Shown piece by piece: positions 1,927 through 26,828 of a DNA stretch of 32,015 bases. The position numbers and the translations under genes are program-made. The stretch is taken from the IMG/VR virus record IMGVR_UViG_2706794662_000017; one strand, 5' to 3'. Under the pieces are notes generated by a model, which saw only the letters and a program-made list of their open reading frames with translations, did not search any database and had not been told where the DNA came from. Every line of letters begins with the position of its first letter. Position 1 is the stretch's first letter. Source of the DNA: a virus. Taxonomy: Duplodnaviria; Heunggongvirae; Uroviricota; Caudoviricetes.

Positions 1927-2423
1927 CAGTGATGACGCTCAATCTCGTCGAAAAACAGCCAGCAGCTATGCGCCGGATAATTGGTAAGCATCTTGCCGTC
2001 CCTCGTTGGCAGGATACATGTGATTATTATAATCAGATGATGGAGCGCGAACGGCTAACAGTTTGCTTTCATGCGCAGTTAAAACAACGTCACGCAACGA
2101 TGCGTTTTGAAGAAATGAACGACGTCGAACGTGAACGGCTGGTTTGTGCAATTGATGAATTGCGTGGGGCATTCTCAAAACGCCGTCAGGTTGGCGCAAG
2201 TGAGTATGCATATATTAGTTTTTTAACAGTCAGTCAGCGTCGTACTTTATTTATGCATGCCGGATTGACTGAAAAAGAATTCAATCAGCCATACTGGCGA
2301 ATTAATGAAGAGTCATGTTACTGGCGTGATGCTTTATTCCGTGCATTACGTGAACTATTCAGTCTGTTTGAGTATGCACCGACAATTCTGACGTCGGTAA
2401 AACCAGAGCAATATTTGCATTAA
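1923..2423 (+). CDS. B: Replication protein B (P2 gpB-like)
   Basis: 166 aa, same size and position as P2 B; start overlaps the upstream stop. Confidence 0.8.
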   Translation: MTVMTLNLVEKQPAAMRRIIGKHLAVPRWQDTCDYYNQMMERERLTVCFHAQLKQRHATMRFEEMNDVERERLVCAIDELRGAFSKRRQVGASEYAYISFLTVSQRRTLFMHAGLTEKEFNQPYWRINEESCYWRDALFRALRELFSLFEYAPTILTSVKPEQYLH

Positions 2424-2486
2424 ATAATTAACCAGAGTTTTTAACGCACTTAATTGTGCGGGGCTTCTTTTTGCCTGGAGAAAGTC

Positions 2487-2711
2487 ATGCATACAGTTTC
2501 TGAAAATCAGTGCGGTAAATACGCATTACTGCTGCAACAGGCCAGAACCGAAGCACAGGCCGACGCTGCGACGCGCTTTTCTTCTCATCTTGACGCCATG
2601 ATTCGCCATATCACAAAGGCGGAGTTATCCCGCGTGGAGATAGTCGAGCTGCTCAGTCAGGAGTCGGAAAAATTTCACAATATCGGATTGTCTCGCGGGG
2701 AGGTGCTTTGA
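2487..2711 (+). CDS. Small hypothetical early protein (P2 orf80 position)
   Basis: ORF 2454..2711; the preferred start ATG 2487 has GGAG 7 nt upstream. Confidence 0.45.
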
Positions 2712-3010
2712 TGTCCTGTTCTCATTCAGTTGTATTACTGAATAACGCCTTAAAAATCGCCGTTATGAAAAATGGCGACTTGTCTCTTATTCAACTTTGT
2801 CTTGATAAAGAAAAACGCGACATCACTGAATCTGTTATCGCGATTTATCAGAATGAATTAAACCTCCTGTCTGATGTGGTCAATTTACTTGTTAAACGCG
2901 CTGTATTCCACAAGCAAATTTCCTCAGTGGATGAACTGACAAAATTAACGACAGAACTTGCCAGTTATTGCGCTGATGTATCCAGGAAACTTAACGATAA
3001 AAGGAGCTGA
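2708..3010 (+). CDS. Small hypothetical early protein (P2 orf81 position)
   Basis: 100-aa ORF, start overlapping the upstream stop (ATGA-type coupling). Confidence 0.45.
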
Positions 3011-3012
3011 TA

Positions 3013-3237
3013 ATGCCGGACAACATAGATTTTATTCAGGAACAACAGGCTGAATTACTGGAGCGCCAGATTAACGCGGCAAGGGTAAAACATTGCGGTG
3101 CTTCTGCGCTGGTTTGCGAAGAGTGTGACGCGCCAATTCCTGCTGCCCGTCGTGCGGCTTATCCGTCAGCCACGCGTTGTGTTTCCTGTCAGTCAGTCTT
3201 TGAAGCAAAAAACAAACATTACCGGAGAACGGCATGA
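3013..3237 (+). CDS. TraR/DksA-family C4 zinc-finger protein (P2 orf82 position)
   Basis: 74 aa containing CxxC...(17 aa)...CxxC (CEECDAPIPAARRAAYPSATRCVSCQ); AAAAGGAG RBS upstream. Confidence 0.6.
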   Translation: MPDNIDFIQEQQAELLERQINAARVKHCGASALVCEECDAPIPAARRAAYPSATRCVSCQSVFEAKNKHYRRTA

Positions 3238-3478
3238 GTATTCGTATTGAAATTGGCGAACGTTATGTCGTTACCAGTGACAGCTTCCAGTTTATTCTCC
3301 ACGAGAAAAAGAGAGCGGAAAGCGGTAAAAACGCCGGTCAGGAATGGCTAGCGGTGGTTGGTTATTACCCGAAATTAAGCCAGCTCGTTTCCGGCCTGAT
3401 GCATCACGATATTCTGACCGGAAGCGCAAAGTCTTTTGCTGATTTAAACGCGCAGGTTGAGCAACTCAGCAAGCGTTG
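3234..3478 (+). CDS. Hypothetical early protein (P2 orf83 position), 3' end lost in masked region
   Basis: ORF starts ATG 3234 and runs into the N-run at 3479; the true end is unknown. Confidence 0.4.
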
Positions 3479-3755
3479 NNNNNNNNNNNNNNNNNNNNNN
3501 NNNNNNNNNNNNNNNNNNNNNNNNNNNNNNNNNNNNNNNNNNNNNNNNNNNNNNNNNNNNNNNNNNNNNNNNNNNNNNNNNNNNNNNNNNNNNNNNNNNN
3601 NNNNNNNNNNNNNNNNNNNNNNNNNNNNNNNNNNNNNNNNNNNNNNNNNNNNNNNNNNNNNNNNNNNNNNNNNNNNNNNNNNNNNNNNNNNNNNNNNNNN
3701 NNNNNNNNNNNNNNNNNNNNNNNNNNNNNNNNNNNNNNNNNNNNNNNNNNNNNNN
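3479..3755. other. Run of N (277 nt, masked or unsequenced)
   Basis: Literal N characters; hides the orf83 end and the start of A. Confidence 1.
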
Positions 3756-5830
3756 TCCGGCGCAATAAAAGCCCGGTGCACGGGTTTTATTTCCTCACAT
3801 CCACTTTTCAGCGTCGTTTATGGCCGCGCATTGAGCGTGTGAATCAGCGCCATGAAATGAACACCGACGCGTCGATGCTGTTTCTGGCTGAGCGTGACCA
3901 CTATGCGCGCCTGCCGGGAATGAATGACAAGGAGCTGAAAAAGTTTGCCGCCCGTATCTCATCGCAGCTTTTCATGATGTATGAGGAACTCAGCGATGCC
4001 TGGGTGGATGCGCATGGCGAAAAAGAATCGCTGTTTACGGATGAGGCGCAGGCTCACCTCTATGGTCATGTTGCTGGCGCTGCACGTGCTTTCAATATTT
4101 CCCCTCTCTACTGGAAAAAATACCGTAAAGGACAGATGACCACGAGGCAGGCATATTCTGCCATTGCCCGTCTGTTTAACGATGAGTGGTGGATTAGTCA
4201 GCTTAAAGGCCAGCGTATGCGCTGGCATGAGGCGTTACTGATTGCTGTCGGGGAGGTCAATAAAGACCGTTCTCCTTATGCCAGTAAACATGCCATTCGT
4301 GATGTGCGTGCACGCCGCCAGGCAAATCTGGAATTTCTTAAATCGTGTGATCTCGAAAACAGGGAAACAGGCGAGCGCATCGACCTTATCAGTAAGGTGA
4401 TGGGCAGTATTTCTAATCCTGAAATTCGCCGGATGGAGCTGATGAACACCATTGCCGGTATTGAGCGTTACGCCGCCGCAGAAGGTGATGTGGGGATGTT
4501 TATCACGCTGACCGCGCCGTCAAAGTATCACCCGACACGTCAGGTTGGAAAAGGCGAAAGTAAAACCGTCCAGCTAAATCACGGCTGGAACGATGAGGCA
4601 TTTAATCCAAAGGATGCGCAGCGTTATCTCTGCCGTATCTGGAGCCTGATGCGCACGGCATTCAAGGATAATGATTTACAGGTCTACGGTTTGCGAGTCG
4701 TCGAGCCACACCACGACGGAACGCCGCACTGGCATATGATGCTTTTTTGTAATCCACGCCAGCGTAACCAGATTATCGAAATCATGCGTCGCTACGCGCT
4801 CAAAGAGGATGGCGACGAAAGAGGAGCTGCGCGAAACCGTTTTCAGGCAAAACATCTTAATCGGGGCGGTGCTGCGGGGTATATCGCGAAATACATCTCA
4901 AAAAATATCGACGGCTATGCACTGGATGGGCAGCTCGATAACGATAGCGGCAGACCGCTGAAAGATACTGCCGCGGCTGTTACCGCATGGGCGTCAACGT
5001 GGCGCATTCCGCAATTTAAAACGGTTGGCCTGCCGACAATGGGGGCTTACCGTGAACTACGCAAATTGCCTCGCGGCGTCAGCATTGCTGATGAGTTTGA
5101 CGAGCGCGTCGAGGCTGCACGCGCCGCCGCAGACAGTGGTGATTTTGCGCTGTATATCAGCGCGCAGGGTGGGGCAAATGTCCCGCGCGATTGTCAGACT
5201 GTCAGGGTCGCCCGTAGTCCGTCGGATGAAGTTAACGAGTACGAGGAAGAAGTCGAGAGAGTGGTCGGCATTTACGCGCCGCATCTCGGCGCGCGTCATA
5301 TTCATATCACCAGAACGACGGACTGGCGCATTGTTCCGAAAGTGCCGGTCGTTGAGCCTTTGACTTTAAAAAGCGGCATCGCCGCGCCTCGGAGTCCTGT
5401 CAATAACTGTGGAAAGCTCACTGGTGGTGATACTTCGTTACCGGCTCCCACACCTTCTGAGCACGCCGCAGCAGTGCTTAATCTGGTAGATGACGGTGTT
5501 ATCGAATGGAATGACCCGGAGGTTGTGAGGGCGCTCAGAGGTGCATTAAAACACGGACTGAGAAGACCAAACCGTCAGCAAAGAAACGGAAGCCCGTTAA
5601 AACCGCATGAAATAGCGCCATCGGCCAGACTGACCCGGTCGGAACGAATGCAAATTACCCGTATCCGCGTTGACCTTGCTCAGAACGGTATCAGGCCGCA
5701 GCGATGGGAGCTTGAGGTGCTGGCGCGTGGGGCAACCGTAAATTATGACGGGAAAAAATTCACTTACCCGCTCGCTGATGAGTGGTCGGGATTCTCAACA
5801 GTATTAGAGTCAAACTCAGTGAAGCGTTAA
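3545..5830 (+). CDS. A: Replication initiation protein A (P2 gpA-like rolling-circle nickase); start lies inside the masked region
   Basis: Readable portion 3756..5830 resembles P2 gpA as I recall it; HUH-type motif (TPHWHMM) and downstream tyrosine motif (YIAKYISK); start estimated assuming a P2-length protein and an exact-length N-run. Confidence 0.85.
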   Translation, partial: XXXXXXXXXXXXXXXXXXXXXXXXXXXXXXXXXXXXXXXXXXXXXXXXXXXXXXXXXXXXXXXXXXXXXXXRRNKSPVHGFYFLTSTFQRRLWPRIERVNQRHEMNTDASMLFLAERDHYARLPGMNDKELKKFAARISSQLFMMYEELSDAWVDAHGEKESLFTDEAQAHLYGHVAGAARAFNISPLYWKKYRKGQMTTRQAYSAIARLFNDEWWISQLKGQRMRWHEALLIAVGEVNKDRSPYASKHAIRDVRARRQANLEFLKSCDLENRETGERIDLISKVMGSISNPEIRRMELMNTIAGIERYAAAEGDVGMFITLTAPSKYHPTRQVGKGESKTVQLNHGWNDEAFNPKDAQRYLCRIWSLMRTAFKDNDLQVYGLRVVEPHHDGTPHWHMMLFCNPRQRNQIIEIMRRYALKEDGDERGAARNRFQAKHLNRGGAAGYIAKYISKNIDGYALDGQLDNDSGRPLKDTAAAVTAWASTWRIPQFKTVGLPTMGAYRELRKLPRGVSIADEFDERVEAARAAADSGDFALYISAQGGANVPRDCQTVRVARSPSDEVNEYEEEVERVVGIYAPHLGARHIHITRTTDWRIVPKVPVVEPLTLKSGIAAPRSPVNNCGKLTGGDTSLPAPTPSEHAAAVLNLVDDGVIEWNDPEVVRALRGALKHGLRRPNRQQRNGSPLKPHEIAPSARLTRSERMQITRIRVDLAQNGIRPQRWELEVLARGATVNYDGKKFTYPLADEWSGFSTVLESNSVKR

Positions 5831-5916
5831 CTCAATAAATATGAGTTTATAAGTTAGGCCTCGAGATTTTGTAGAAAGGGATGTATACTGAGTATCGTAT
5901 AGATTTGGAGTGAGTG

Positions 5917-6939
5917 ATGACTGTAAAGGTGATAGACCTTTTTTGTGGTGCTGGCGGATTAACTCATGGTTTGCAGCTTGCGGGGCTTGATGTCGTTGCA
6001 GGCATTGACCTTGAGGGGGAATGTAGGTTTCCCTATGAAAGAAACAATAAATCTAAGTTTATTGAGCAAGATATCGCTAAAGTAACAAAAGAGGAACTGC
6101 TGAGGCTTTATGGTGATGCGTCTGTAAAAGTATTGGCAGGATGCGCACCTTGCCAACCTTTTTCAAAATATACTCAAGGAAAAGATAAGGCTGATGATAA
6201 AAAATGGCCTCTTCTTTATGAGTTCGAACGTTTAATTCGCGAAGTATCTCCAGAAATCGTAACAATGGAGAACGTTCCTGATGTAACTAAACATAAAGTT
6301 TATAATGATTTTTATAATTCATTGTTAAAGTTGGGCTATTATGTTTGGGCGTCTAAGATTGATTGTGTCGAATATGGAATCCCACAAAACCGTTCCCGTC
6401 ATGTATTGTTGGCCTCAAAATTGGGGGCGATTGAGTTAGTAAAACGTGACGATGTTATTTTGAAAACAGTTAGAGATGCAATAGGAAATCTTCCTCCATT
6501 AGAAGATGGCCAAACAGATCCAAATGATATATTACATAGAGCCAGTAAATTAAATCCGATTAATAAAAAAAGAATTATACACTCTGTTCCTGGTGGTACA
6601 TGGAAGGACTGGCCGAAAGAGTTGGTTGCCGCTTGTCATATGAAATCCAGCGGTAAAGGGTATGCTAGTGTATATGGGCGCATGTCTTGGGATAAGCCAA
6701 GTCCAACAATTACAACTCTTTGTTATGGTTTCGGGAATGGGCGTTTTGGACATCCAGAACAGCATAGAGCGATTTCTCTTAGAGAGGCTGCTTTATTGCA
6801 AACTTTCCCGATGGATTATATTTTTGTAGAAGACAAAAACAAGTTTGTTATAAGAAGTATTGGGAAAATGATAGGTAATGCTGTTCCTGTGGAACTAGGA
6901 AAAGCAATTGGGCAATCAATCAAGAACCATTTAGAATGA
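5917..6939 (+). CDS. DNA (cytosine-5)-methyltransferase, complete, no adjacent restriction endonuclease recognised
   Basis: Motif I DLFCGAGG, motif IV PCQPFS (catalytic Cys), motif VI ENV, motif VIII QNRSR, motif X GNAVPV; ATG 5917 with GGAG 6 nt upstream; AT-rich relative to the phage backbone. Confidence 0.85.
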   Translation: MTVKVIDLFCGAGGLTHGLQLAGLDVVAGIDLEGECRFPYERNNKSKFIEQDIAKVTKEELLRLYGDASVKVLAGCAPCQPFSKYTQGKDKADDKKWPLLYEFERLIREVSPEIVTMENVPDVTKHKVYNDFYNSLLKLGYYVWASKIDCVEYGIPQNRSRHVLLASKLGAIELVKRDDVILKTVRDAIGNLPPLEDGQTDPNDILHRASKLNPINKKRIIHSVPGGTWKDWPKELVAACHMKSSGKGYASVYGRMSWDKPSPTITTLCYGFGNGRFGHPEQHRAISLREAALLQTFPMDYIFVEDKNKFVIRSIGKMIGNAVPVELGKAIGQSIKNHLE

Positions 6940-6945
6940 TAAAAT

Positions 6946-6962
6946 GGCCTGCTTTACAGGCC
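6946..6962. terminator. Hairpin GGCCTG-CTTTA-CAGGCC between convergent genes (possible bidirectional terminator)
   Basis: Perfect 6-bp stem with 5-nt loop, flanked by A/T-rich sequence, lying between the methyltransferase stop (6939) and the minus-strand gene stop (6969). Confidence 0.35.
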
Positions 6963-6968
6963 TTATAA

Positions 6969-7649
6969 CTATTGTTCTAAATATTCATTATTATTTATAT
7001 AGTGCTCTATATTATTCACGATAGCATCAAGATAGGCGATTACTTCTAATGAAATATTCTCTAAGTCCTGATATGAAACATTTTTTCCAATCTCAGCAAA
7101 TGATACATTGCCATGAGATAAATCATTACGATGTTGTTTAACAGTGGCTAATTTTTCACCATGTTTAGTGTGAGTGTAATCGGAATGTGTAGAAAAACCA
7201 TATATTTTCGATTTTTCTTTGATTTCCTCTCTATCAATATTTCCTGAGAATATTTTCTTTTTGTTGAACGTGCCATAAGATATACCGCAAGATATACCTT
7301 TGGTAAGGTGATTAACTAAACTTTCAACATTTACAGATTCATTTTTTAATCTTTTTAATATTTCTGACCTGAGATTTTTCCTGAGTTTGTCAAATTCTAC
7401 GTTTCTATCATAAATAGTCTCATGAATAAGGCAGATAGCTTCTCTCATTGTTGATTCAATGAGGTTATATAACAGTATATATACTGCTCCCTTTAGAGTT
7501 TTTCGTGATTGAGCAGTAATGGAGAACTTATGTTCTTTATCATCAGCTGATATCAGTTCTGCACCGGCATACTCAATAAATTTCAAAAGATCCAAATAGG
7601 CCAAGATCTCTCCTGACCTTTCGTCAAAATCCTCACGAAAACGATCCAT
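6969..7649 (-). CDS. Hypothetical 226-aa protein with C-terminal Rx4H motif (putative HEPN-like nuclease); second gene of a two-gene operon
   Basis: ATG 7647-7649 with AGAGGA RBS 5 nt upstream, located inside the 3' end of the upstream gene; R-N-D-L-S-H at residues 174-179 (nt 7113-7130); function is inferred from the motif only. Confidence 0.55.
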   Translation of the reverse strand: MDRFREDFDERSGEILAYLDLLKFIEYAGAELISADDKEHKFSITAQSRKTLKGAVYILLYNLIESTMREAICLIHETIYDRNVEFDKLRKNLRSEILKRLKNESVNVESLVNHLTKGISCGISYGTFNKKKIFSGNIDREEIKEKSKIYGFSTHSDYTHTKHGEKLATVKQHRNDLSHGNVSFAEIGKNVSYQDLENISLEVIAYLDAIVNNIEHYINNNEYLEQ

Positions 7650-7650
7650 G

Positions 7651-8793
7651 TTAATCCTCTAATAATTTATCCCGAACATATTCAATTCGTTCAATTACCT
7701 TCACGCGACTATTAGCTCCGTCGGAAGTGGTCAATCGTTTGAATTCTTCTGAGCTTAGCCAATCTAAGTTCTTGGGAACAAGGTCAGGGACTTCACGTAA
7801 TGCAAGTGCTGCGCCAACAGCGAGAGATTCGAATCTAACTCGAGGTGTAGATTTTGCAGTAATAGTTTTCTTGAATCCTGCTGGGAAATAGTTTTCAACA
7901 AAAGATAGAACATTAGCAAACTCTTGTTTCATTGAGTTTTGTTTAGTTTCGTCTATATCTCGATTTTCTGACATATAGTCATTTAGAAAATCCCGTACGG
8001 AATGATCAAAGTTCTTGTACTTATCTACGTAGGCAAAGAATCTTAATGTAAATTCTAACCGTTCATCTCGTTTTTCTTTAGTCTGAGATAAAGGTGCTAA
8101 TTCTTTAAATTTAGGTATTGTTGAGCATGGCTTAATAACCTGTGTATATAAATTTGTTGAACCAAGTTCTGATCCTTTACGGACTTCCATATCTTTCAAT
8201 ATATCGCTGCCAGAGTTAATACGCTCAAAAAGATCTCTACGGGTTTCTTCATTGCATTTAGAACTCAATTCTATAACGCGGACAGGAATTCTCATGAAAC
8301 GACGTTGACGTGATAATGGTAAATCTTGGAATTTGAAACCATTAAGGACGTCTAAAGATTTCAGGTCTTGTAAAACTAATTCATTTTGGATAAAAGCGTG
8401 TATAGTCCTAACTCGTTGTGAGCCATCAACAATCTCAATTCGCCCATCTAAATCGGGATCTTCGGAGAGAACATCTGCTATAAATATATATGGTATAGGA
8501 AAACCCAAAATCAAAGACTCTATCAATTTTGATTGTCTTTTTTCACTCCAAACAAAATCCCTTTGATAATCAGGAACAAAGAGTTCGTTAGTATCATCCT
8601 CTAATCCGTTATGATACTTATTAACTAATAACTCAACGGTAAATTCTTTGGTCTCAAAATCCACATCCTTTTGCTCAGCACGAATTTGCTCTTCAGCGTT
8701 TTGCTTTATCACCTCTAGCTGAGCAAGCAACTCTGCTCTTTTCTTGGCATTATCTTCATTTTCTAGTTGAGATTTTAAATCAATAATGTCCAT
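7651..8793 (-). CDS. DUF262 (ParB/Srx-like, GmrSD N-terminal-type) domain protein; first gene of a two-gene operon
   Basis: Signature motifs FVPDYQRDFVW, GFPIPYIF and IVDGSQRVRTI (DGQQR variant); preferred start ATG 8791-8793 with AGGGA RBS 7 nt upstream (the ORF track extends to a TTG at 8811); stop is 1 nt from the downstream gene start; no DUF1524/HNH-like C-terminal domain recognised. Confidence 0.75.
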   Translation of the reverse strand: MDIIDLKSQLENEDNAKKRAELLAQLEVIKQNAEEQIRAEQKDVDFETKEFTVELLVNKYHNGLEDDTNELFVPDYQRDFVWSEKRQSKLIESLILGFPIPYIFIADVLSEDPDLDGRIEIVDGSQRVRTIHAFIQNELVLQDLKSLDVLNGFKFQDLPLSRQRRFMRIPVRVIELSSKCNEETRRDLFERINSGSDILKDMEVRKGSELGSTNLYTQVIKPCSTIPKFKELAPLSQTKEKRDERLEFTLRFFAYVDKYKNFDHSVRDFLNDYMSENRDIDETKQNSMKQEFANVLSFVENYFPAGFKKTITAKSTPRVRFESLAVGAALALREVPDLVPKNLDWLSSEEFKRLTTSDGANSRVKVIERIEYVRDKLLED

Positions 8794-8978
8794 GTCTAGT
8801 TCCCTTAACAAGTGTTAAAAATTGAAGCGGATAGCATACCGCATAGATCATGAAAAATGCCATCATGTGCATGGATTTGCATGCGTCAGAAGTCGCTTTT
8901 ATTGTTAGTTATCACTAGCGCTGGCGTGCTCTTGGAGTGTTCATGCAACTGCATTAAAACCGCCCCATGAAGCGGGCG

Positions 8979-8997
8979 GGCGAGGCGGGGAAAGCAC
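8979..8997. other. cos: cos site, 19-nt cohesive-end sequence GGCGAGGCGGGGAAAGCAC
   Basis: Exact match to the P2 cohesive-end 19-mer as I recall it, located just upstream of Q where P2 cos lies. Confidence 0.6.
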
Positions 8998-9135
8998 TGC
9001 GCGCTGGCGGTGGTGCTGATTTTATTTTCCAGCGTCTCAGCGCGTCGTGACGGCGCTTAGTCTGCCCGTTGGGCGTTGGTGTGTCTGCGGGATTTTTTGT
9101 GCGGTGATGAGCGTGTGAGGGCGTGATGGCGGGGT

Positions 9136-9160
9136 GTAAAAAAGCCGCCCGCAGGCGGCG
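9136..9160 (-). terminator. Rho-independent terminator downstream of Q (minus strand)
   Basis: GC stem GCCGCC / GGCGGC (9144-9159) followed on the minus strand by a U-tract (plus-strand AAAAAA 9138-9143), directly 3' of the Q stop. Confidence 0.5.
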
Positions 9161-9164
9161 ATGT

Positions 9165-10199
9165 TCAGCCGTTGTCAGTGTCCAGTGAGTAGTTTTTAAA
9201 GCGGATGACCTCCTGACCGAGCCAGCCGTTTATCTCGCGGATCCTGTCCTGTAACGGGATAAGCTCATTGCGGACAAAGACCTTTGCCACTTTCTCAATA
9301 TCACCCAGCGACCCGACGTTCTCCGGCTTGCCCCCCATCAACTGAAAGGGGATGCGGTGCGCGTCCAGCAGGTCAGCGGCGCTGGCTTTTTTGATATTAA
9401 AAAAATCGTCCTTCGTTGCCACTTCACTGAGCGGGATAATTTTAATGCCGTCGGCTTTCCCCTGTGGGGCATAGAGAAACAGATTTTTAAAGTTATTGCG
9501 GCCTTTCGACTTAACCATGTTTTCGCGAAGCATTTCGATATCGTTGCGATCCTGCACGGCATCGGTGACGTACATGATGTATCCGGCATGTGCGCCGTTT
9601 TCGTAATACTTGCGGCGGAACAGCGTGGCCGACTCATTCAGCCATGCAGAGTTAAGGGCGCTGAGATATTCCGGCAGGCCGTACAGCTCCTGATTAATAT
9701 CAGGCTCCAGCAGGTGAAACACGGAGCCGGGCGCGAAGGCTGTCGGCTCGTTGAAGGACGGCACCCACCAGTAAACATCCTCCTCCACGCCACGACGGGT
9801 ATATTTGGCCGGTGAGGTTTCCAGTCTGATGACCTTACCGGTGGTGCTGTAACGCTTTTCCAGAAACGCATTACCGAACACCAGAAAATCCAGCACAAAA
9901 CGGCTGAAATCCTGCTGGGAAAGCCACGGGTGCGGGATAAACGTTGAAGCCAGAATATTACGTTTGACGTAAATCGGTGAGCTGTGATGCACGGCAGCAC
10001 GCAGGCTTTTTGCCAGACCGGTAAAGCTGACCGGCGGCTCATACCATCTGCCGTTACTGATGCACTCGACGTAATCCAGAATGTCACGGCGGTCGAGTAC
10101 CGGCACCGGCTCACCAAAGGTGAATGCTTCCATTTTCGGGGCGCTGGCGGTGATTGTTTTTGCCGCAGGTCGCGGTGTTTTCCCTTTTTTCTTGCTCAT
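9165..10199 (-). CDS. Q: Portal protein (P2 gpQ)
   Basis: 344 aa, near-identical to P2 gpQ as I recall it (MSKKKGKTP...SLDTDNG). Confidence 0.95.
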   Translation of the reverse strand: MSKKKGKTPRPAAKTITASAPKMEAFTFGEPVPVLDRRDILDYVECISNGRWYEPPVSFTGLAKSLRAAVHHSSPIYVKRNILASTFIPHPWLSQQDFSRFVLDFLVFGNAFLEKRYSTTGKVIRLETSPAKYTRRGVEEDVYWWVPSFNEPTAFAPGSVFHLLEPDINQELYGLPEYLSALNSAWLNESATLFRRKYYENGAHAGYIMYVTDAVQDRNDIEMLRENMVKSKGRNNFKNLFLYAPQGKADGIKIIPLSEVATKDDFFNIKKASAADLLDAHRIPFQLMGGKPENVGSLGDIEKVAKVFVRNELIPLQDRIREINGWLGQEVIRFKNYSLDTDNG

Positions 10200-11971
10200 C
10201 AGTAAAACTCCAGAATGGTGGATGTCAGCGGAGTGCTGATACCGGCGGTGAGTGGCTCATTTAACAGGGCGTGCATGGTTGCCCAGGCGAGGTCGGCGTG
10301 GCTGGCTTCCTCGCTGCGGCTGGCCTCATAGGTGGCACTGCGTCCGCTGCTGGTCATGGTCTTGCGGATAGCCATGAACGAGCTGGTGATGTCGGTGGCG
10401 CTGACGTCATATTCCAGACAGCCACGGCGGATGACGTCTTTGGCCTTGAGCACCATTGCGGTTTTCATTTCCGGCGTGTAGCGGATATCGCGCGCGGCGG
10501 GATAGAACGAGCGCACGAGCTGGAACACGCCGACACCGAGGCCGGTGGCATCAATACCGATGTATTCGACGTTGTATTTTTCGGTGAGTTTGCGGATGGA
10601 CTCCGCCTGGGTGGCAAAGTCCATGCCTTTCCACTGGTGACGCTCAAGTATTCTGAATTTGCCACCGGCCACCACCGGCGGTGCCAGCACCACGCATCCG
10701 GCGCTGTCGCCACGGTGTGACGGGTCGTAACCAATCCATACCGGGCGGGAGCCGAACGGATTTGCGGCAAACGGCGCGTAGTCTTCCCATTCTTCCAGCG
10801 TGTCGACCATGCAGCGTTGCAGCTCCTCGAACGGGAACACCGATACCTTGTCGTCAACAAATTCACACATGAACAGGTTTTTAAAATCGTCGGCGCTGTT
10901 TTCGCGTTTGAGCTGCTCAATGTCGAACAATGTGCAGCCGCCTTTCAGGGCGTCCTCAATGGTGACAATCTGCCGCCACTGGCCGTCCGCACAGAGAAGA
11001 CCACCGGCAAGGGCGTTATGACTGACGTCGATTTCCACACGTTCGGCGGCGCTGGCGCGTCCCCGGTTGAACAGTTCACCCGACCAGAACGGGTAGGCGT
11101 CGTGCGCCAGCGTGGACGGGGTGGAGAAATAGGTCGAGCGCAGGTGACTCTGTGAGGCCATACCTGATGCCACCTTACGCAGTACCTGAAAATTCGGGAT
11201 CCAGAAAATCTCGTCGACGTACAGGTCGCCGTTATGGCTCTGTGCGGTGTTGGAGTTGGTGCCGAGAAAAATCAGTTTTGCGCCGTTATTGCCCAGGACA
11301 ATCGGGTCACCGGTCAGGTCAACGTCAACCAGACGAGCAAAGGCGATGATGTATTCACGGAACACATACGCCTGCGTTTTACTGGCCGACAGAAAAATCT
11401 GGTTATGGCCGGTTTTCAGGGCGCGCAGCAGCGCCTCGCGGGAAAAATAAAACGTCGCGCCAATCTGGCGGGATTTCAGGATATCGCGGATGCGGTGCTC
11501 AAGCCCGGCACGATACCAGTGCAACTGATAGTCGAAAGACTGCTCAAAGAAAATCTGCTCCAGCTTTTCGATGGCCTCGTCACTGAAAAAATTCTTTTTC
11601 GGTTTGCGACGCCCGCCTTTGTTGCGGTTAGCGATGTTCGGATTAAGGTCTGCCTCGTTGCCGGTCTGGCTGTAGCGGTTTACCCGTGCCAGTCGTTCAA
11701 TCTGGCGTCCGAGCAGGTCAATTTCCTTGAAGTCACCGCCGGTTTTCTGCGGTTTGATGATGAGCTGGGTCAGCCGCGCTTCCAGACTCATTTCGACACG
11801 GCTGATGGGGGCAACACTGTCCCAGCCGTCGCGCTGTTTCCAGCTCTGCACCGTCGGGCGTTTCATCTGCAACATGGCGGCAATCTGCGGCACGGAAAAC
11901 CCCTGCCAGTACAGCAGCGCCGCCTGACGACGCGGGTCGTGTAAAAGAGTGGTGTCTGTGGTGATGGTCAT
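10199..11971 (-). CDS. P: Terminase large subunit/ATPase (P2 gpP)
   Basis: P2 gpP-like from MTITTDTTLLHD (ATG 11969-11971), 590 aa; the ORF track starts 10 codons earlier. Confidence 0.95.
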   Translation of the reverse strand: MTITTDTTLLHDPRRQAALLYWQGFSVPQIAAMLQMKRPTVQSWKQRDGWDSVAPISRVEMSLEARLTQLIIKPQKTGGDFKEIDLLGRQIERLARVNRYSQTGNEADLNPNIANRNKGGRRKPKKNFFSDEAIEKLEQIFFEQSFDYQLHWYRAGLEHRIRDILKSRQIGATFYFSREALLRALKTGHNQIFLSASKTQAYVFREYIIAFARLVDVDLTGDPIVLGNNGAKLIFLGTNSNTAQSHNGDLYVDEIFWIPNFQVLRKVASGMASQSHLRSTYFSTPSTLAHDAYPFWSGELFNRGRASAAERVEIDVSHNALAGGLLCADGQWRQIVTIEDALKGGCTLFDIEQLKRENSADDFKNLFMCEFVDDKVSVFPFEELQRCMVDTLEEWEDYAPFAANPFGSRPVWIGYDPSHRGDSAGCVVLAPPVVAGGKFRILERHQWKGMDFATQAESIRKLTEKYNVEYIGIDATGLGVGVFQLVRSFYPAARDIRYTPEMKTAMVLKAKDVIRRGCLEYDVSATDITSSFMAIRKTMTSSGRSATYEASRSEEASHADLAWATMHALLNEPLTAGISTPLTSTILEFY

Positions 11972-17899: not shown

Positions 17900-18422
17900 G
17901 TTTAAGCGTTTTGAAGACAGGCTGACCGGACTTATTGAGTCGCTGTCACCGTCAGGGCGTCGGCGACTGAGCGCCGAACTGGCGAAACGTCTGCGTCAGA
18001 GTCAGCAGCGTCGGGTGATGGCACAGAAAGCCCCGGACGGCACACCCTACGCACCACGCCAGCAGCAGAGCGCCAGAAAAAAGACCGGTCGCGTTAAGCG
18101 AAAAATGTTTGCGAAACTTATCACCAGTCGTTTTTTGCATATCCNNNNNNNNNNNNNNNNNNNNNNNNNNNNNNNNNNNNNNNNNNNNNNNNNNNNNNNN
18201 NNNNNNNNNNNNNNNNNNNNNNNNNNNNNNNNNNNNNNNNNNNNNNNNNNNNNNNNNNNNNNNNNNNNNNNNNNNNNNNNNNNNNNNNNNNNNNNNNNNN
18301 NNNNNNNNNNNNNNNNNNNNNNNNNNNNNNNNNNNNNNNNNNNNNNNNNNNNNNNNNNNNNNNNNNNNNNNNNNNNNNNNNNNNNNNNNNNNNNNNACCC
18401 GGCGGCATCCTTCCCGTTATGA
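17892..18422 (+). CDS. S: Tail completion protein S (P2 gpS); 3' part inside masked region
   Basis: N-terminal 84 aa readable and gpS-like; reading frame continues through the N-run to a stop overlapping the V start (ATGA); the true end could lie inside the N-run. Confidence 0.7.
   Translation: MNEFKRFEDRLTGLIESLSPSGRRRLSAELAKRLRQSQQRRVMAQKAPDGTPYAPRQQQSARKKTGRVKRKMFAKLITSRFLHIXXXXXXXXXXXXXXXXXXXXXXXXXXXXXXXXXXXXXXXXXXXXXXXXXXXXXXXXXXXXXXXXXXXXXXXXXXXXXXXXXXXXXPAASFPL
18145..18396. other. Run of N (252 nt, masked or unsequenced)
   Basis: Literal N characters inside S and upstream of V. Confidence 1.
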
Positions 18423-23166: not shown

Positions 23167-23694
23167 ATGCAGCATTTGATAAATATAACGGCAGGTAATC
23201 CAAAAACGGTTGAACAATATCAATTGACAAAGGACTTTGATGTTGTCTGGTTTTTTTCAGAAGATGGTAAGAACTGGTACGAAGAACAAAAGTATTTTGC
23301 TGATGACACGATAAAAATAGCGTACGACAAAGATAATATTATCCGCTATGTGGAAAAGGATGTGACAGCTATCAGACCGGATGGATTAAGTGTTGTTGAA
23401 GTGCCGGATATTACTGCTAACCGACGGGCGGACATTTCAGGGAACTGGATGTTTAAGGACTGTACAGTGATTAAACGAATTTATACGGCAGAGGAATTGC
23501 AGCAGCAGGCAGAAAATCGGAAAGCCAGACTTCTTGCAGATGCTGAATCCGTGATTTTGCCGCTGGAGCGCGCTGTCAGGCTGAATATGGCAACAGATGA
23601 GGAGCGCAGTCGACTGGAGGCATGGGAACGCTACAGTGTTCTGGTCAGTCGTGTGGATCCTGCAAATCCTGAATGGCCGGAAATGCCGCAATAA
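23167..23694 (+). CDS. G: Tail fibre assembly chaperone (P2 gpG)
   Basis: 175 aa; N- and C-termini (MQHL..., ...[13 protein letters not shown]) match P2 gpG as I recall it. Confidence 0.85.
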
Positions 23695-23776
23695 GTTGTA
23701 TGAGCTCTGGTGTGAGCTTACATATCTATGGCACAGAGTAAAGCCTAATCTGAGAGTCCGCTCTGTGCCAGAAGTA

Positions 23777-23805
23777 GACGCACAAGGTGGGCGTGTCTTT
23801 TTCTT
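23777..23805 (+). terminator. Putative rho-independent terminator after the V-G late operon
   Basis: GC-rich imperfect hairpin GACGCAC...GGCGTGTC followed by TTTTTCTT on the plus strand, between the G stop and the convergent cargo gene. Confidence 0.35.
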
Positions 23806-23808
23806 AAG

Positions 23809-25227
23809 CTACATCGGGCTCTTATATGGGGAATGAGAGTTTTTGAAACGCGGTTCTTCATGCTTCGGACTGTAAATTCTTGCATGATTATCTATCACAA
23901 CTTTACTTCCAAGAATATCTCGAGCTTCTCCTAACGACCACACAGTAGAAAGATCATTAGTCAAATTTCGATAGAGAGCACGAAACCCCTTGGGTTTTTT
24001 AAGATCATATAAGAAATCAGGAACTTTAACTTTAAAATTAAAGGTCGGTAGTTTCGGAAGGGAATTAATAGCCGCAACAGTATTGTATACATGTACAAGC
24101 TTAGTTACAGGTACACCTTGTCTAGTCTTGAGCCCATACTTAGTTCGAATATAATCTGATTCTTTCGATACTTCAGTAAGCAATGCTCTTACTGACTTAT
24201 TAGCTTGAGGCAATTCATTTTCATCAAACAAGCGCTTTATTTCTCGCATTTTCTCACGGGCCCTTACAAATTCGTTGTTGTCCCTTATGTTATAAGCAGC
24301 TTCAACAATACAACTTGGATCACCAGTTTCTTTTGCGAGCCATGCCGAAAATAAAGGAAGCGAAGTTGCTGTTGCTACAGCTTTACCACCAGAATGAATA
24401 TCAATGAGATCATGACTTAACGAAGTGGAAAAGTTTTCTACAATATGTTTAGCATAGTCAAAACCATACTGACAGTTTTGGCTTAAATATGTCTGTTGAT
24501 ACGCCTGACGTAATGGATATAAAAAAGTATCTGCTTGAAGGTACTTAGCTGTGAGAGAATAAAATACTGCCCGATTAGCCAGCCATACAAGCGAAGCCAC
24601 GAATGCTTTGATTGCATCTGATGCTTCACCAGCAGATGTGCCATCCCCCCATTTTGCTCCGGGAACTTTGTACCCCTTGCGAATAGGGTTGCCAAATCGA
24701 TCGAGAAGTTCAACATCGCCATTTGTTCTATTACCAGACTCAGCAGCATCACGCAGTTCTGAAAAAATGGCAGCAGCAATGTTACCATATTTTTCAAACT
24801 CCTTACCTCCATCAGATAAGTTCTTCAGTGTTAGATGATAAACACTTGAACTAATGTCCCATGTACATATGATATGTGTCTGAAGAAGTTCAATTAGTTT
24901 TTTAAAATCGTCATTAACAAATGTTCCACCACGAATTTTAGGTTTCAATGCATCAGATATTTTTTTTGCTTCACTTTCAATTTCATCCAACCCATATTGT
25001 GCTTTATCAAGAAATAATATCTCTCTGAAACTTGAAATCCTACTCCCACGGTACTCTGGAATATAATCATCAACCGCGATAACGTGATCATAGAACAAAA
25101 TAGACTGTATATAGTTCTCAAATGCTATTATGTCTGTATCTACTGAGTCCTTCGATCTTGTTTTTACTTTCCCCTCGATTCTTTGGACTGCAGTTAGAGT
25201 TGAATTATCAATCAGTGCGTATGTCAT
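23809..25227 (-). CDS. Hypothetical 472-aa protein, AT-rich cargo gene at the P2 Z/fun variable locus; function unknown
   Basis: Long uninterrupted minus-strand ORF antisense to both flanking late operons; ATG 25225-25227 with AAGGAA RBS 5 nt upstream; no P2 structural counterpart; no catalytic motif recognised with confidence. Confidence 0.7.
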   Translation of the reverse strand: MTYALIDNSTLTAVQRIEGKVKTRSKDSVDTDIIAFENYIQSILFYDHVIAVDDYIPEYRGSRISSFREILFLDKAQYGLDEIESEAKKISDALKPKIRGGTFVNDDFKKLIELLQTHIICTWDISSSVYHLTLKNLSDGGKEFEKYGNIAAAIFSELRDAAESGNRTNGDVELLDRFGNPIRKGYKVPGAKWGDGTSAGEASDAIKAFVASLVWLANRAVFYSLTAKYLQADTFLYPLRQAYQQTYLSQNCQYGFDYAKHIVENFSTSLSHDLIDIHSGGKAVATATSLPLFSAWLAKETGDPSCIVEAAYNIRDNNEFVRAREKMREIKRLFDENELPQANKSVRALLTEVSKESDYIRTKYGLKTRQGVPVTKLVHVYNTVAAINSLPKLPTFNFKVKVPDFLYDLKKPKGFRALYRNLTNDLSTVWSLGEARDILGSKVVIDNHARIYSPKHEEPRFKNSHSPYKSPM

Positions 25228-25496
25228 TTACATTCCTTAAATAAAAAACATTAATGGTTGCTCCAAAAATACTAGCAACCTTATTTCAGTGAAGTCAATT
25301 TTTTAACATTAATCATTTACACACGCTTGAAAAGTGATCGCTGAAAATGGCATTTACTACATTATCAAAGTTCCCATCGAAGATAATCGAAATTTTTCCC
25401 GGTAGCAGATATCGTGAGATTTAACGCTTTTCGCTCATAGCAGGCTGTCAGATTTGATAGCGTTTGGGCTATGTAAACTGTCAGTCGGAAAATGAG

Positions 25497-25514
25497 TGTG
25501 TACAAATCAGGACA
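25497..25514 (+). promoter_or_regulatory. TGT-N12-ACA dyad, candidate Ogr-dependent late promoter element upstream of FI
   Basis: Exact TGT(25497-25499)-N12-ACA(25512-25514) about 125 nt upstream of the FI start; a dyad of this form centred near -55 is the reported P2 late promoter element. Confidence 0.3.
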
Positions 25515-25545
25515 TGCGGGCGAATTGCCCGCATTTTCTTTATCT
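25514..25545 (+). other. Perfect palindrome ATGCGGGCGAATTGCCCGCAT followed by TTTTCTTT (terminator-like hairpin, or a binding site)
   Basis: 8-bp stem with 5-nt loop plus T-rich tract, read directly; role unclear because it lies between the putative late promoter dyad and FI. Confidence 0.3.
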
Positions 25546-25637
25546 GTTGTTTCATCCACTGACCAGCCAGGTCAAATAGCGTCTCATGCACTGCCCAACA
25601 GAAAATAGTTGCACCCATTAACCACGGAGTTAAACGG

Positions 25638-26828
25638 ATGAGTGACTATCATCACGGCGTGCAGGTGCTGGAGATTAACGACGGCACCCGCGTCATTTCC
25701 ACCGTATCCACTGCCATTGTCGGCATGGTCTGCACGGCCAGCGATGCGGATGCGGAAACCTTCCCCCTCAATAAACCGGTGCTGATTACCAATGTGCAGA
25801 GCGCAATTGCAAAGGCCGGTAAAAAAGGCACGCTGGCGGCATCGTTGCAGGCCATCGCCGACCAGTCAAAACCGGTCACCGTTGTCGTGCGTGTGGAAGA
25901 CGGCACCGGCGACGACGAGGAAACGAAACTCGCGCAGACCGTTTCCAATATCATCGGCACCACCGACGAAAACGGTCAGTACACCGGACTGAAAGCCCTG
26001 CTGGCGGCGGAGTCGGTAACCGGTGTTAAACCGCGTATTCTCGGCGTGCCGGGACTGGACACCAAAGAGGTGGCTGTTGCACTGGCATCAGTCTGTCAGA
26101 AGCTGCGCGCTTTCGGGTATATCAGCGCATGGGGCTGTAAGACCGTTTCCGAGGTGAAAGCCTACCGTCAGAATTTCAGCCAGCGTGAGCTGATGGTCAT
26201 CTGGCCGGATTTCCTCGCATGGGATACGGTCGCCAGTACCACCGCCACCGCGTATGCCACCGCCCGTGCGCTGGGTCTGCGCGCTAAAATCGACCAGGAG
26301 CAGGGCTGGCATAAAACGCTGTCCAACGTCGGGGTGAACGGTGTTACCGGCATCAGCGCGTCCGTATTCTGGGATTTGCAGGAGTCCGGCACCGATGCTG
26401 ACCTGCTTAACGAGTCAGGCGTCACAACGCTGATTCGCCGTGACGGTTTCCGCTTCTGGGGTAACCGTACCTGCTCTGATGACCCGCTGTTCCTCTTTGA
26501 AAACTACACCCGCACCGCGCAGGTGCTGGCCGACACGATGGCTGAGGCGCACATGTGGGCGGTGGACAAGCCCATCACCGCAACGCTGATTCGCGACATC
26601 GTTGACGGCATCAATGCCAAATTCCGTGAGCTGAAAACAAACGGCTATATCGTGGATGCGACCTGCTGGTTCAGCGAAGAATCCAACGATGCGGAAACCC
26701 TCAAGGCCGGAAAACTGTATATCGACTACGACTATACCCCGGTGCCTCCTCTTGAAAACCTGACCCTGCGCCAGCGTATTACCGATAAATACCTGGCAAA
26801 TCTGGTCACCTCGGTTAACAGCAATTAA
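25638..26828 (+). CDS. FI: Tail sheath protein (P2 gpFI)
   Basis: 396 aa, P2 gpFI size and position. Confidence 0.95.
   Translation: MSDYHHGVQVLEINDGTRVISTVSTAIVGMVCTASDADAETFPLNKPVLITNVQSAIAKAGKKGTLAASLQAIADQSKPVTVVVRVEDGTGDDEETKLAQTVSNIIGTTDENGQYTGLKALLAAESVTGVKPRILGVPGLDTKEVAVALASVCQKLRAFGYISAWGCKTVSEVKAYRQNFSQRELMVIWPDFLAWDTVASTTATAYATARALGLRAKIDQEQGWHKTLSNVGVNGVTGISASVFWDLQESGTDADLLNESGVTTLIRRDGFRFWGNRTCSDDPLFLFENYTRTAQVLADTMAEAHMWAVDKPITATLIRDIVDGINAKFRELKTNGYIVDATCWFSEESNDAETLKAGKLYIDYDYTPVPPLENLTLRQRITDKYLANLVTSVNSN

Follow-up and report, generated by a model that had tools for sequence, protein, structure and literature searches.

A predicted methyltransferase-DUF262-HEPN module in the slot between gene A and cos of a P2-family genome

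In P2 and its relatives, the interval between genes A and Q next to cos (the gpA-gpQ locus) is a hotspot, for which 1,650 arrangements, many of them anti-phage, have been described in 18,150 E. coli loci (Rousset 2022, PMC9122126) and which is also known as P2 defence hotspot #1 (Vassallo 2022, PMC9519451; Odegrip 2006 cited therein). Here, we analyse the content of this slot in a Caudoviricetes genome of 32,015 nucleotides (IMG/VR record IMGVR_UViG_2706794662_000017), hereafter the window, in which a first-pass annotation had pointed to an AT-rich island at positions 5831-8978. The segment is almost certainly variable cargo of the P2-family A-cos/Q hotspot. To judge from its sequence, this cargo is one conserved mobile module, in which a gene for a C5-cytosine DNA methyltransferase (MTase) is convergent with a translationally coupled operon encoding a DUF262 protein and then a HEPN protein, and it was apparently acquired by recombination replacing the orf91-tin-old genes of P2.

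Slot, arrangement and gene association are all already known. The same domain arrangement is listed in Table S5A of the Rousset study (WP_000351260, WP_001697730 and WP_000373633; PMC9122126), and these three accessions are annotated in a 97.5%-identical copy of the island, H27, in E. coli strain 2014EL-1345-2; the table of tested systems in that study has no DUF262 entry, and there is no sign that the triad was tested there. The association of an MAE_28990 HEPN protein with a ParB-like protein and a DNA methylase was described in 2013, together with the proposal that HEPN RNases linked to restriction-modification (R-M) form a further line of defence (Anantharaman, PMC3710099, Table 1). With all three components, PF18737 and the Rx4H motif matching, this is the same predicted system, and its description was purely computational. 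Three groups of systems resemble the module in part. PD-T4-2, a DUF262-HEPN pair from E. coli ECOR65, confers protection against T4, as a clone as well as in its native strain (PMC9519451). In Menshen (NsnABC; Millman 2022 per PMC12065111), NsnA is a DNA sensor made of ParB-DUF262 and ParBDB domains, and PD-T4-2 is treated as a separate, uncharacterised DUF262 system (PMC12065111). In GmrSD, BrxU and SspE, DUF262 acts as a modification sensor and NTPase, and DUF1524 cuts (PMC12065111, PMC10952713).

The slot between gene A and cos

From left to right, the locus consists of the following features.

5811-5830, plus strand: left recombination junction; homology with P2 and with the prophages L005 and L006 ends at 5810
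5831-5916, plus strand: leader of the MTase gene, with a promoter-like TCGAGA-17-TATACT (5861-5889; 9/12) and a GGAG
5917-6939, plus strand: C5-cytosine DNA MTase, 340 amino acids (aa) (PF00145, 3.4e-58; TIGR00675, 1.5e-37)
6946-6962, no strand assigned: hairpin GGCCTGctttaCAGGCC, rich in G+C, in the 29 nt that separate the stops of the convergent MTase and HEPN genes
6969-7649, minus strand: MAE_28990-family HEPN protein, 226 aa (PF18737, 5.8e-29)
7651-8793, minus strand: DUF262/ParB-like NTPase-type protein, 380 aa (PF03235, DUF262/GmrSD_N, 8.2e-26)
8794-8866, minus strand: cargo-specific region upstream of the DUF262-HEPN operon, with weak 8/12 promoter matches only
8867-8978, no strand assigned: P2-family backbone beside cos, not cargo, homologous to relatives with other cargo
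8979-8997, plus strand: cos 19-mer GGCGAGGCGGGGAAAGCAC, identical to the annotated cosL and cosR in the P2 record

We mapped the boundaries by BLASTN of positions 5300-9499 against P2 and three E. coli prophages and by base-level alignments. The flanks are 93-96% identical to P2, and the interior has no similarity to it; on the left, identity of 93-95% to P2 and the compared prophages extends up to 5810, and on the right, homology resumes at 8867 in L005, at 8920 in L006 and at 8950 in P2. The exchanged segment thus measures about 3,056 bp (5811-8866), with a GPA domain (1.5e-123) upstream and a portal domain downstream. The first-pass annotation had bounded the island by the stop of A, which ends at 5830, and by the cos 19-mer. 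Both landmarks are where it placed them and frame the right locus; as limits of the insertion they are slightly off, the left junction lying 20 nt inside A and the right one about 110 bp before cos. These 20 nt of cargo provide about the last seven codons of gene A and its stop, so that A ends in ...LESNSVKR in the window and in ...MEWT in P2. In P2-type genomes, the A gene ending in ...EWT overlaps the start of orf91, and orf91 is absent from the window. Hence, the segment does occupy the place of tin and old, as had been proposed, but orf91 has been replaced along with them.

The locus shares with the P2 orf91-tin-old locus its position after A and before cos/Q, its conserved flanks and a small, AT-rich, exchangeable cargo and, as with old and tin in P2, transcription of the defence-type operon leads away from cos. 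What sets it apart from P2, though not in kind, is its gene content, the loss of orf91 and a junction at which A has lost its native final codons. Independent evidence for the left end of the module comes from a prophage of E. coli GN04592 (L002), whose homology to the window starts at 5818. There (3119-6821), the same module, 89% identical, comes after orf91 (DUF3850) and a small hypothetical gene, both still in place, indicating that the module can add to, and not only replace, the resident cargo.

No direct or inverted repeats bracket the island, only short repeats at chance level being present, so that a transposon-like or site-specific insertion is unsupported, and the pattern suggests that the segment was exchanged by recombination in the conserved flanks and not by transposition. 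There was no Rfam match at E <= 0.1 in 5500-9300. A motif GTGCATG-N4-TTGCATG at 8866-8885, about 95-110 bp left of cos, is present in every relative whatever its cargo, and its core, GCAT...GCAT, is conserved in P2 and all compared prophages; it belongs to the backbone, possibly as part of the packaging signal or of an element upstream of the cargo promoter. The cos-side backbone also includes a GC-rich hairpin at 8960-8979.

That the content of the slot differs among related prophages, as the first-pass annotation expected, is evident from the 5,426 complete E. coli genomes: 2,176 have matching flanks, but only nine contain the full island, eight of these copies being about 97.5% identical and one 89%. 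The slots of P2, L005, L006 and phage P24B2 all hold differing content, and in other relatives the slot is filled by orf91-tin-old or by orf91 with hypothetical genes. The exact protein alleles of the window are labelled 'MULTISPECIES Enterobacteriaceae', and each is found on about 680-800 contigs; allele sources are Shigella sonnei and E. coli, and cluster members come from Salmonella and Klebsiella, that is, from several Enterobacteriaceae genera.

In a 500-nt sliding window, G+C content falls from 0.55-0.57 in gene A to 0.31-0.40 over about 5751-9000 and stands at 0.51-0.61 to the right, in the portal and terminase genes. By exact counts, 5831-8978 has 36.4% G+C against 51.4% for the whole window, with 53.1% in A, 53.2% in the portal gene Q and 57.2% in the terminase gene P; the exchanged segment, at 35.9% against 53.1% for the rest of the window (chi-square = 324, p = 2e-72), is the lowest-GC 3.1-kb stretch of the window. 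The island is therefore genuine, and the two lines sampled by hand in the first-pass annotation were counted accurately, its ~32% at 7021-7080 being 31.7% and its ~68% at 10261-10320, in the terminase gene, 68.3%. Codon usage, which it had proposed as a check, differs as well: G+C at third codon positions is 26-29% in the island genes (MTase 28.9%, HEPN 25.6%, DUF262 27.0%) and 54-71% in the flanking ones (A 54.1%, Q 64.9%, P 71.2%). AT-richness is, however, not peculiar to this cargo, given that the orf91-tin-old segment of P2 is equally AT-rich (35.1% G+C). Three further dips, at about 3.5, 18.2 and 28.7 kb, were ruled out as islands, being artefacts of masked runs of N at 3479-3755 (277 nt), 18145-18396 (252 nt) and 28605-28854 (250 nt), the first of which interrupts the replication gene A (3476-5830).

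Three predicted proteins and the systems they resemble

The three open reading frames (ORFs) of the cargo, all encoding defence-associated domains, are intact and full length relative to their RefSeq homologues, and each gene has a Shine-Dalgarno-like sequence, in agreement with the first-pass annotation on both counts: GGAG at 5905-5908, 8 nt before the MTase ATG at 5917; AAGGGA ahead of the DUF262 ATG at 8793 on the minus strand; and GAGGA within the 3' end of the DUF262 gene, before the HEPN ATG. The stop of the DUF262 gene is 1 nt from this ATG (GAGGAtTAAcATG), which implies translational coupling. A scan found no terminator-like site between the stop of A and the start of the MTase gene, so that read-through into the latter from the early operon is possible; the promoter of the DUF262-HEPN operon presumably lies in 8794-8866. 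Terminator-like sites are enriched (7 against 2.1 expected) and include a P2 tQ-type terminator near 9144-9159 and the intergenic hairpin at 6946-6962, a candidate bidirectional terminator. Expression of the cargo from the prophage, which the first-pass annotation considered probable, remains an inference, the promoter-like matches being weak (9/12 ahead of the MTase gene, 8/12 ahead of DUF262).

The MTase also matches PADLOC DrmMII/MTase_II (~1e-90) and, in PDB, M.HaeIII (8e-22), and its motifs are intact: I (F9xGxG), IV (P78-C79-Q80), VI (E118-N-V), VIII (Q157xRxR) and X (G320-N-A-V). The similarity to M.HaeIII and to the DrmMII class is too distant for recognition specificity to be transferred. 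The HEPN protein carries a conserved Rx4H motif (R174-N-D-L-S-H179), also matches PF18735 of the same Pfam clan (RiboL-PSP-HEPN; 8e-09, 36 bits) and is a predicted RNase effector. The DUF262 protein contains motifs I (Q77-R78..W82), II (D123-G-S-Q-R127) and III (F189-E-R-I-N193), the residues of which are nearly all invariant in alignments of homologues, and is predicted, by analogy with characterised relatives, to be a DNA sensor. In PHROGs, the DUF262 and HEPN proteins fall in phage families of unknown function. By their intact motifs, all three proteins are predicted to be catalytically competent.

Many HEPN proteins act as toxins in toxin-antitoxin systems, and toxins of this kind (SO_3166, HEPN/MNT) rank among the top structural matches of the one encoded here. 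Moreover, R-M modules behave as addiction elements, and the module rides on phages and adjoins resolvase- or XisA-type recombinase genes. It could accordingly be imagined as a cassette for post-segregational killing that stabilises the prophage or the cargo instead of defending against phages: once the element was lost, methylation or a partner acting like an antitoxin would be diluted out, and the HEPN toxin would kill. We consider this quite improbable as an explanation of the module, because validated anti-phage systems predominate in and around the slot, the nearest relative that has been tested protects against T4, and the pair tolerates loss of the MTase; addiction and defence are, in any case, not mutually exclusive.

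A DUF262 protein that cut DNA would place the module among classical R-M systems: the protein would be an endonuclease acting on unmethylated DNA, the MTase would protect, and the HEPN protein would be a second-line suicide RNase that comes into play once restriction has failed. A weak match of the DUF262 domain to PADLOC REase_II (PDLC03418, 9.4e-06) and the convergent layout of MTase and 'nuclease', typical of type II R-M, would fit, as would the layered, PrrC-like model of 2013, in which the partner is called a 'ParB nuclease' (Anantharaman 2013, PMC3710099). Nevertheless, beyond DUF262 itself, neither DUF1524/HNH nor any other Pfam match was found in the DUF262 protein (Pfam, PADLOC), and a Pfam scan of the cargo proteins found no PD-(D/E)xK, HNH, GIY-YIG or PLD domain. 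No recognised nuclease domain follows DUF262, the full length of the protein aligns to the nuclease-less NsnA, and in characterised systems DUF262 is the NTPase or sensor and DUF1524 does the cutting. The MTase is indeed like those of type II systems in its intact motifs I, IV, VI, VIII and X and its predicted activity, but the repeated loss of the MTase next to an intact pair, which stands without any MTase in 42 loci (see below), is not expected of a true restriction enzyme, whose gene should never outlast the MTase. On this evidence, a classical R-M system is improbable.

The module belongs to none of the other DUF262 systems compared here. As in PD-T4-2, also from E. coli, a nuclease-less DUF262 gene is followed by a small HEPN gene of the same Pfam clan, and the DUF262 protein matches PD-T4-2_A (PADLOC PDLC04027; 2.5e-35, profile 55-356 of 363); this match is weaker than that to NsnA (1.7e-54, residues 17-380 on profile 25-376 of 385), the best hit of the protein and the profile to which it is nearer. 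The PD-T4-2 clone comprises two ORFs in about 1.5 kb, with no methyltransferase, and the pair in the window spans 1.8 kb. The HEPN protein has no match to PADLOC families at E <= 0.01, PD-T4-2_B included, nor have its homologues in P24B2 and Mcat32 at E <= 0.001, so that membership in PD-T4-2 is ruled out and homology to this only tested relative is partial. The full-length NsnA match suggests, by homology, the ParB-DUF262 plus ParBDB architecture of Menshen. However, only three ORFs in the island are of appreciable size, none of them an ATPase of the NsnB type (AAA_15/DUF3696), and the gene downstream of DUF262 encodes the MAE_28990 HEPN protein, with no NsnC inPIN nuclease detected by PADLOC. 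Lacking NsnB and NsnC, and having a HEPN effector and an attached methyltransferase, the module is not a Menshen system. With GmrSD, BrxU and SspE, it shares the QRxxxW, DGxQR and FxxxN motifs, but membership is ruled out by the missing C-terminal DUF1524 His-Me/HNH domain; unlike these systems, it has a separate HEPN effector, presumably acting on RNA, and the associated modification would be 5-methylcytosine (5mC) rather than phosphorothioate or a phage hypermodification.

The module across taxa and the part of the methyltransferase

We examined 86 loci with a HEPN relative, 80 of them from a one-genome-per-species scan, which confirmed 395 HEPN relatives in all, and 6 from contig look-ups. 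In all 86, the gene directly upstream of HEPN encodes DUF262, and the taxa carrying the module include Enterobacterales, Vibrio, Methylococcales, Cyanobacteria, a Bacteroidales metagenome-assembled genome and Acidobacteria. In 39 loci, an orthologous C5-MTase (hidden Markov model score >450) is found next to the pair, in one of three arrangements: convergent and just downstream of HEPN in 36, co-directional and downstream in 1, and upstream in 2. One locus (L026) keeps only an MTase remnant, 42 of the 82 evaluable loci have no MTase, and in the remaining 4, the contig ends too early to judge. No conserved neighbour common to the MTase-less loci takes its place. On a neighbour-joining tree of 75 DUF262 proteins, presence of the MTase requires 2 changes, compared with a mean of 24.8 and a minimum of 18 in shuffles, and all deep branches carry it. 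Thus, the MTase appears to be ancestral in the module and to have been lost twice, once in a clade of 35 taxa, mostly cyanobacterial, and once in a small nested clade (L026 and L027) in which the remnant survives.

Across taxa, identity is 30-41% for HEPN, which diverges fastest, 43-60% for DUF262 and 50-76% for the MTase. The same architecture, with DUF262 43-45% identical, is shared by phage P24B2, which has it in this very hotspot, and by the Mcat phages of Moraxella catarrhalis, which have it beside the repressor gene. In P24B2, the MTase is 72-76% identical to that of the window, whereas DUF262 is 45% and HEPN 30% identical, so the architecture has been kept even though the components were shuffled. 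The P24B2 MTase gene (L093, NC_049387, ~2021-3041, minus strand) has a +1 frameshift in a G8 run at PGG codons, beside intact DUF262 and HEPN genes; seven G's would restore the frame, and the corresponding sequence in the window, CCTGGTGGT, contains no such run. The frameshift could reflect an error in sequencing the homopolymer or, alternatively, on/off switching by slipped-strand mispairing.

The module also turns up in other genomic settings. In Brasilonema bromeliae (L009, QMEB01000152, 3910-8362), it lies beside an XisA/XisC-type recombinase gene, in a block with nitrogenase-family (Oxidored_nitro) genes on both sides; a heterocyst-type DNA excision element may carry it there as cargo. 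In Vibrio jasicida (L007), it adjoins a resolvase gene. In Providencia vermicola (L012, 4857-7727), the triad is not beside gene A but adjoins a DUF4145 (HEPN-related) gene, less than 4 kb from other P2-like genes (Ogr/Delta, gpD), which indicates that the module occupies more than one slot in P2-related elements.

By analogy with the described systems, an anti-phage function of the cargo is probable. A scheme in which a modification-linked sensor passes its signal to an RNase is more tentative, its chance being close to even but somewhat short of it. Under this scheme, the module would serve in inter-virus competition and be expressed from the lysogen, like old and tin of P2. The DUF262/ParB-like protein, with its NTPase motifs and NsnA-type C-terminal DNA-binding domain, would scan DNA and hydrolyse NTP, and its recognition of foreign DNA would switch on the HEPN partner; because the DUF262 protein has no nuclease domain, the signal would have to be passed to the translationally coupled HEPN protein. 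The Rx4H RNase would then cut cellular or phage RNA, leading to translation arrest and aborted infection. The MTase would write 5mC on resident DNA, both chromosome and prophage, and this mark would let the sensor tell resident from incoming DNA or would tune the sensor against autoimmunity. Overall, the module would link DNA modification to an effector directed at RNA instead of DNA.

Several observations weigh against this scheme. Promoter-like sites in the scan are not above chance (8 against 10.1 expected), and the matches within the cargo are weak. The structural model of the DUF262 protein is of moderate quality (pLDDT 77.5, pTM 0.50, motif loops below 50). The HEPN protein escapes the PADLOC families, as noted above, and searches of the searchable library by family names and domain combinations found no paper testing the three-gene form. 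As a clone of two genes, PD-T4-2 is both functional and tolerated, and the MTase is dispensable for persistence of the pair, as the large MTase-less clade, the L026 remnant and the P24B2 frameshift illustrate; both facts argue against a strict rule that methylation protects self.

The chance-level promoter matches would also fit passenger DNA that is silent or decaying and at present serves no function. This is extremely improbable, considering that all three frames are intact and full length, every catalytic motif is conserved, identical alleles occur on hundreds of contigs from several Enterobacteriaceae genera, and synteny is conserved across phyla.

The main alternative concerns the division of labour within the triad. 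It is possible, if on balance somewhat unlikely, that the DUF262-HEPN pair is an autonomous, type IV-like system sensing hypermodified or otherwise foreign phage DNA, in the manner of PD-T4-2 against T4, and that the MTase is functionally separate, serving the mobile element by shielding phage or prophage DNA from host type II restriction or in an epigenetic role. The pair does without the MTase in about half of the evaluable loci and persists after MTase decay; PD-T4-2 is functional with two genes; the phylogenies of MTase and pair are incongruent in P24B2; and Rousset Table S6 files a Vibrio combination of DUF262, DUF262/DndB and HEPN_MAE_28990 under 'Type-IV restriction'. Yet one orthologous MTase family stays adjacent over at least four phyla, in three gene orders and with two losses where shuffles require at least 18, a pattern that is hard to explain without functional coupling. 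Furthermore, a 5mC writer beside a sensor of cytosine modification risks self-triggering unless the two are co-adapted.

At the other end stands the proposal that the triad forms a defence family of its own, whose response, aimed at RNA, would need the licence of an epigenetic mark, the MTase writing 5mC on resident DNA and the nuclease-less DUF262/ParBDB NTPase reading it and gating HEPN; the DUF262 protein would then be the 5mC counterpart of the phosphorothioate sensor SspE, and the MTase-less pairs would be secondary derivatives that became independent of modification. In this full form, we think the proposal unlikely. Returning to the modification-linked scheme, we read the distribution as that of an MTase that is probably under selection to remain linked and yet is no obligatory antidote, within a module that seems to be stably inherited while its parts are exchangeable. 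Since the DUF262-HEPN pair survives loss of the MTase, the latter appears to be an accessory rather than an indispensable antidote.

A second AT-rich island and the interest of the triad

The window contains a second genuine AT-rich island, at 23700-25630 (G+C 0.34-0.42), between a tail-fibre assembly gene (23167-23694) and the tail sheath gene (25638-26828). This is the Z/fun position of P2, described as a second defence-enriched locus (Vassallo 2022, PMC9519451). The island holds one ORF of 472 aa (23809-25227, minus strand), annotated as 'hypothetical protein', with a full-length match to phrog_13435 ('unknown function') and no match in Pfam, PADLOC or PDB. The ORF is present in 7 of the 5,426 complete E. 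coli genomes, and its flanks are present in 1,686; none of the seven records is among the nine with the MTase-DUF262-HEPN island. Of the two islands, this one may be the more novel.

As a genome feature, the segment between A and cos is ordinary: another filled anti-phage hotspot of P2, with cargo that already stands in a published table. Its value lies in pointing to a widespread triad, which ranges from Enterobacteriaceae to Cyanobacteria, Acidobacteria and Bacteroidota and is carried by temperate phages of E. coli and Moraxella. The MTase that is apparently ancestral and was lost twice, and the components that were shuffled while the architecture was kept, offer a comparative handle on this triad, which bears on the question of whether an RNase effector can be under the control of a modification mark on DNA.

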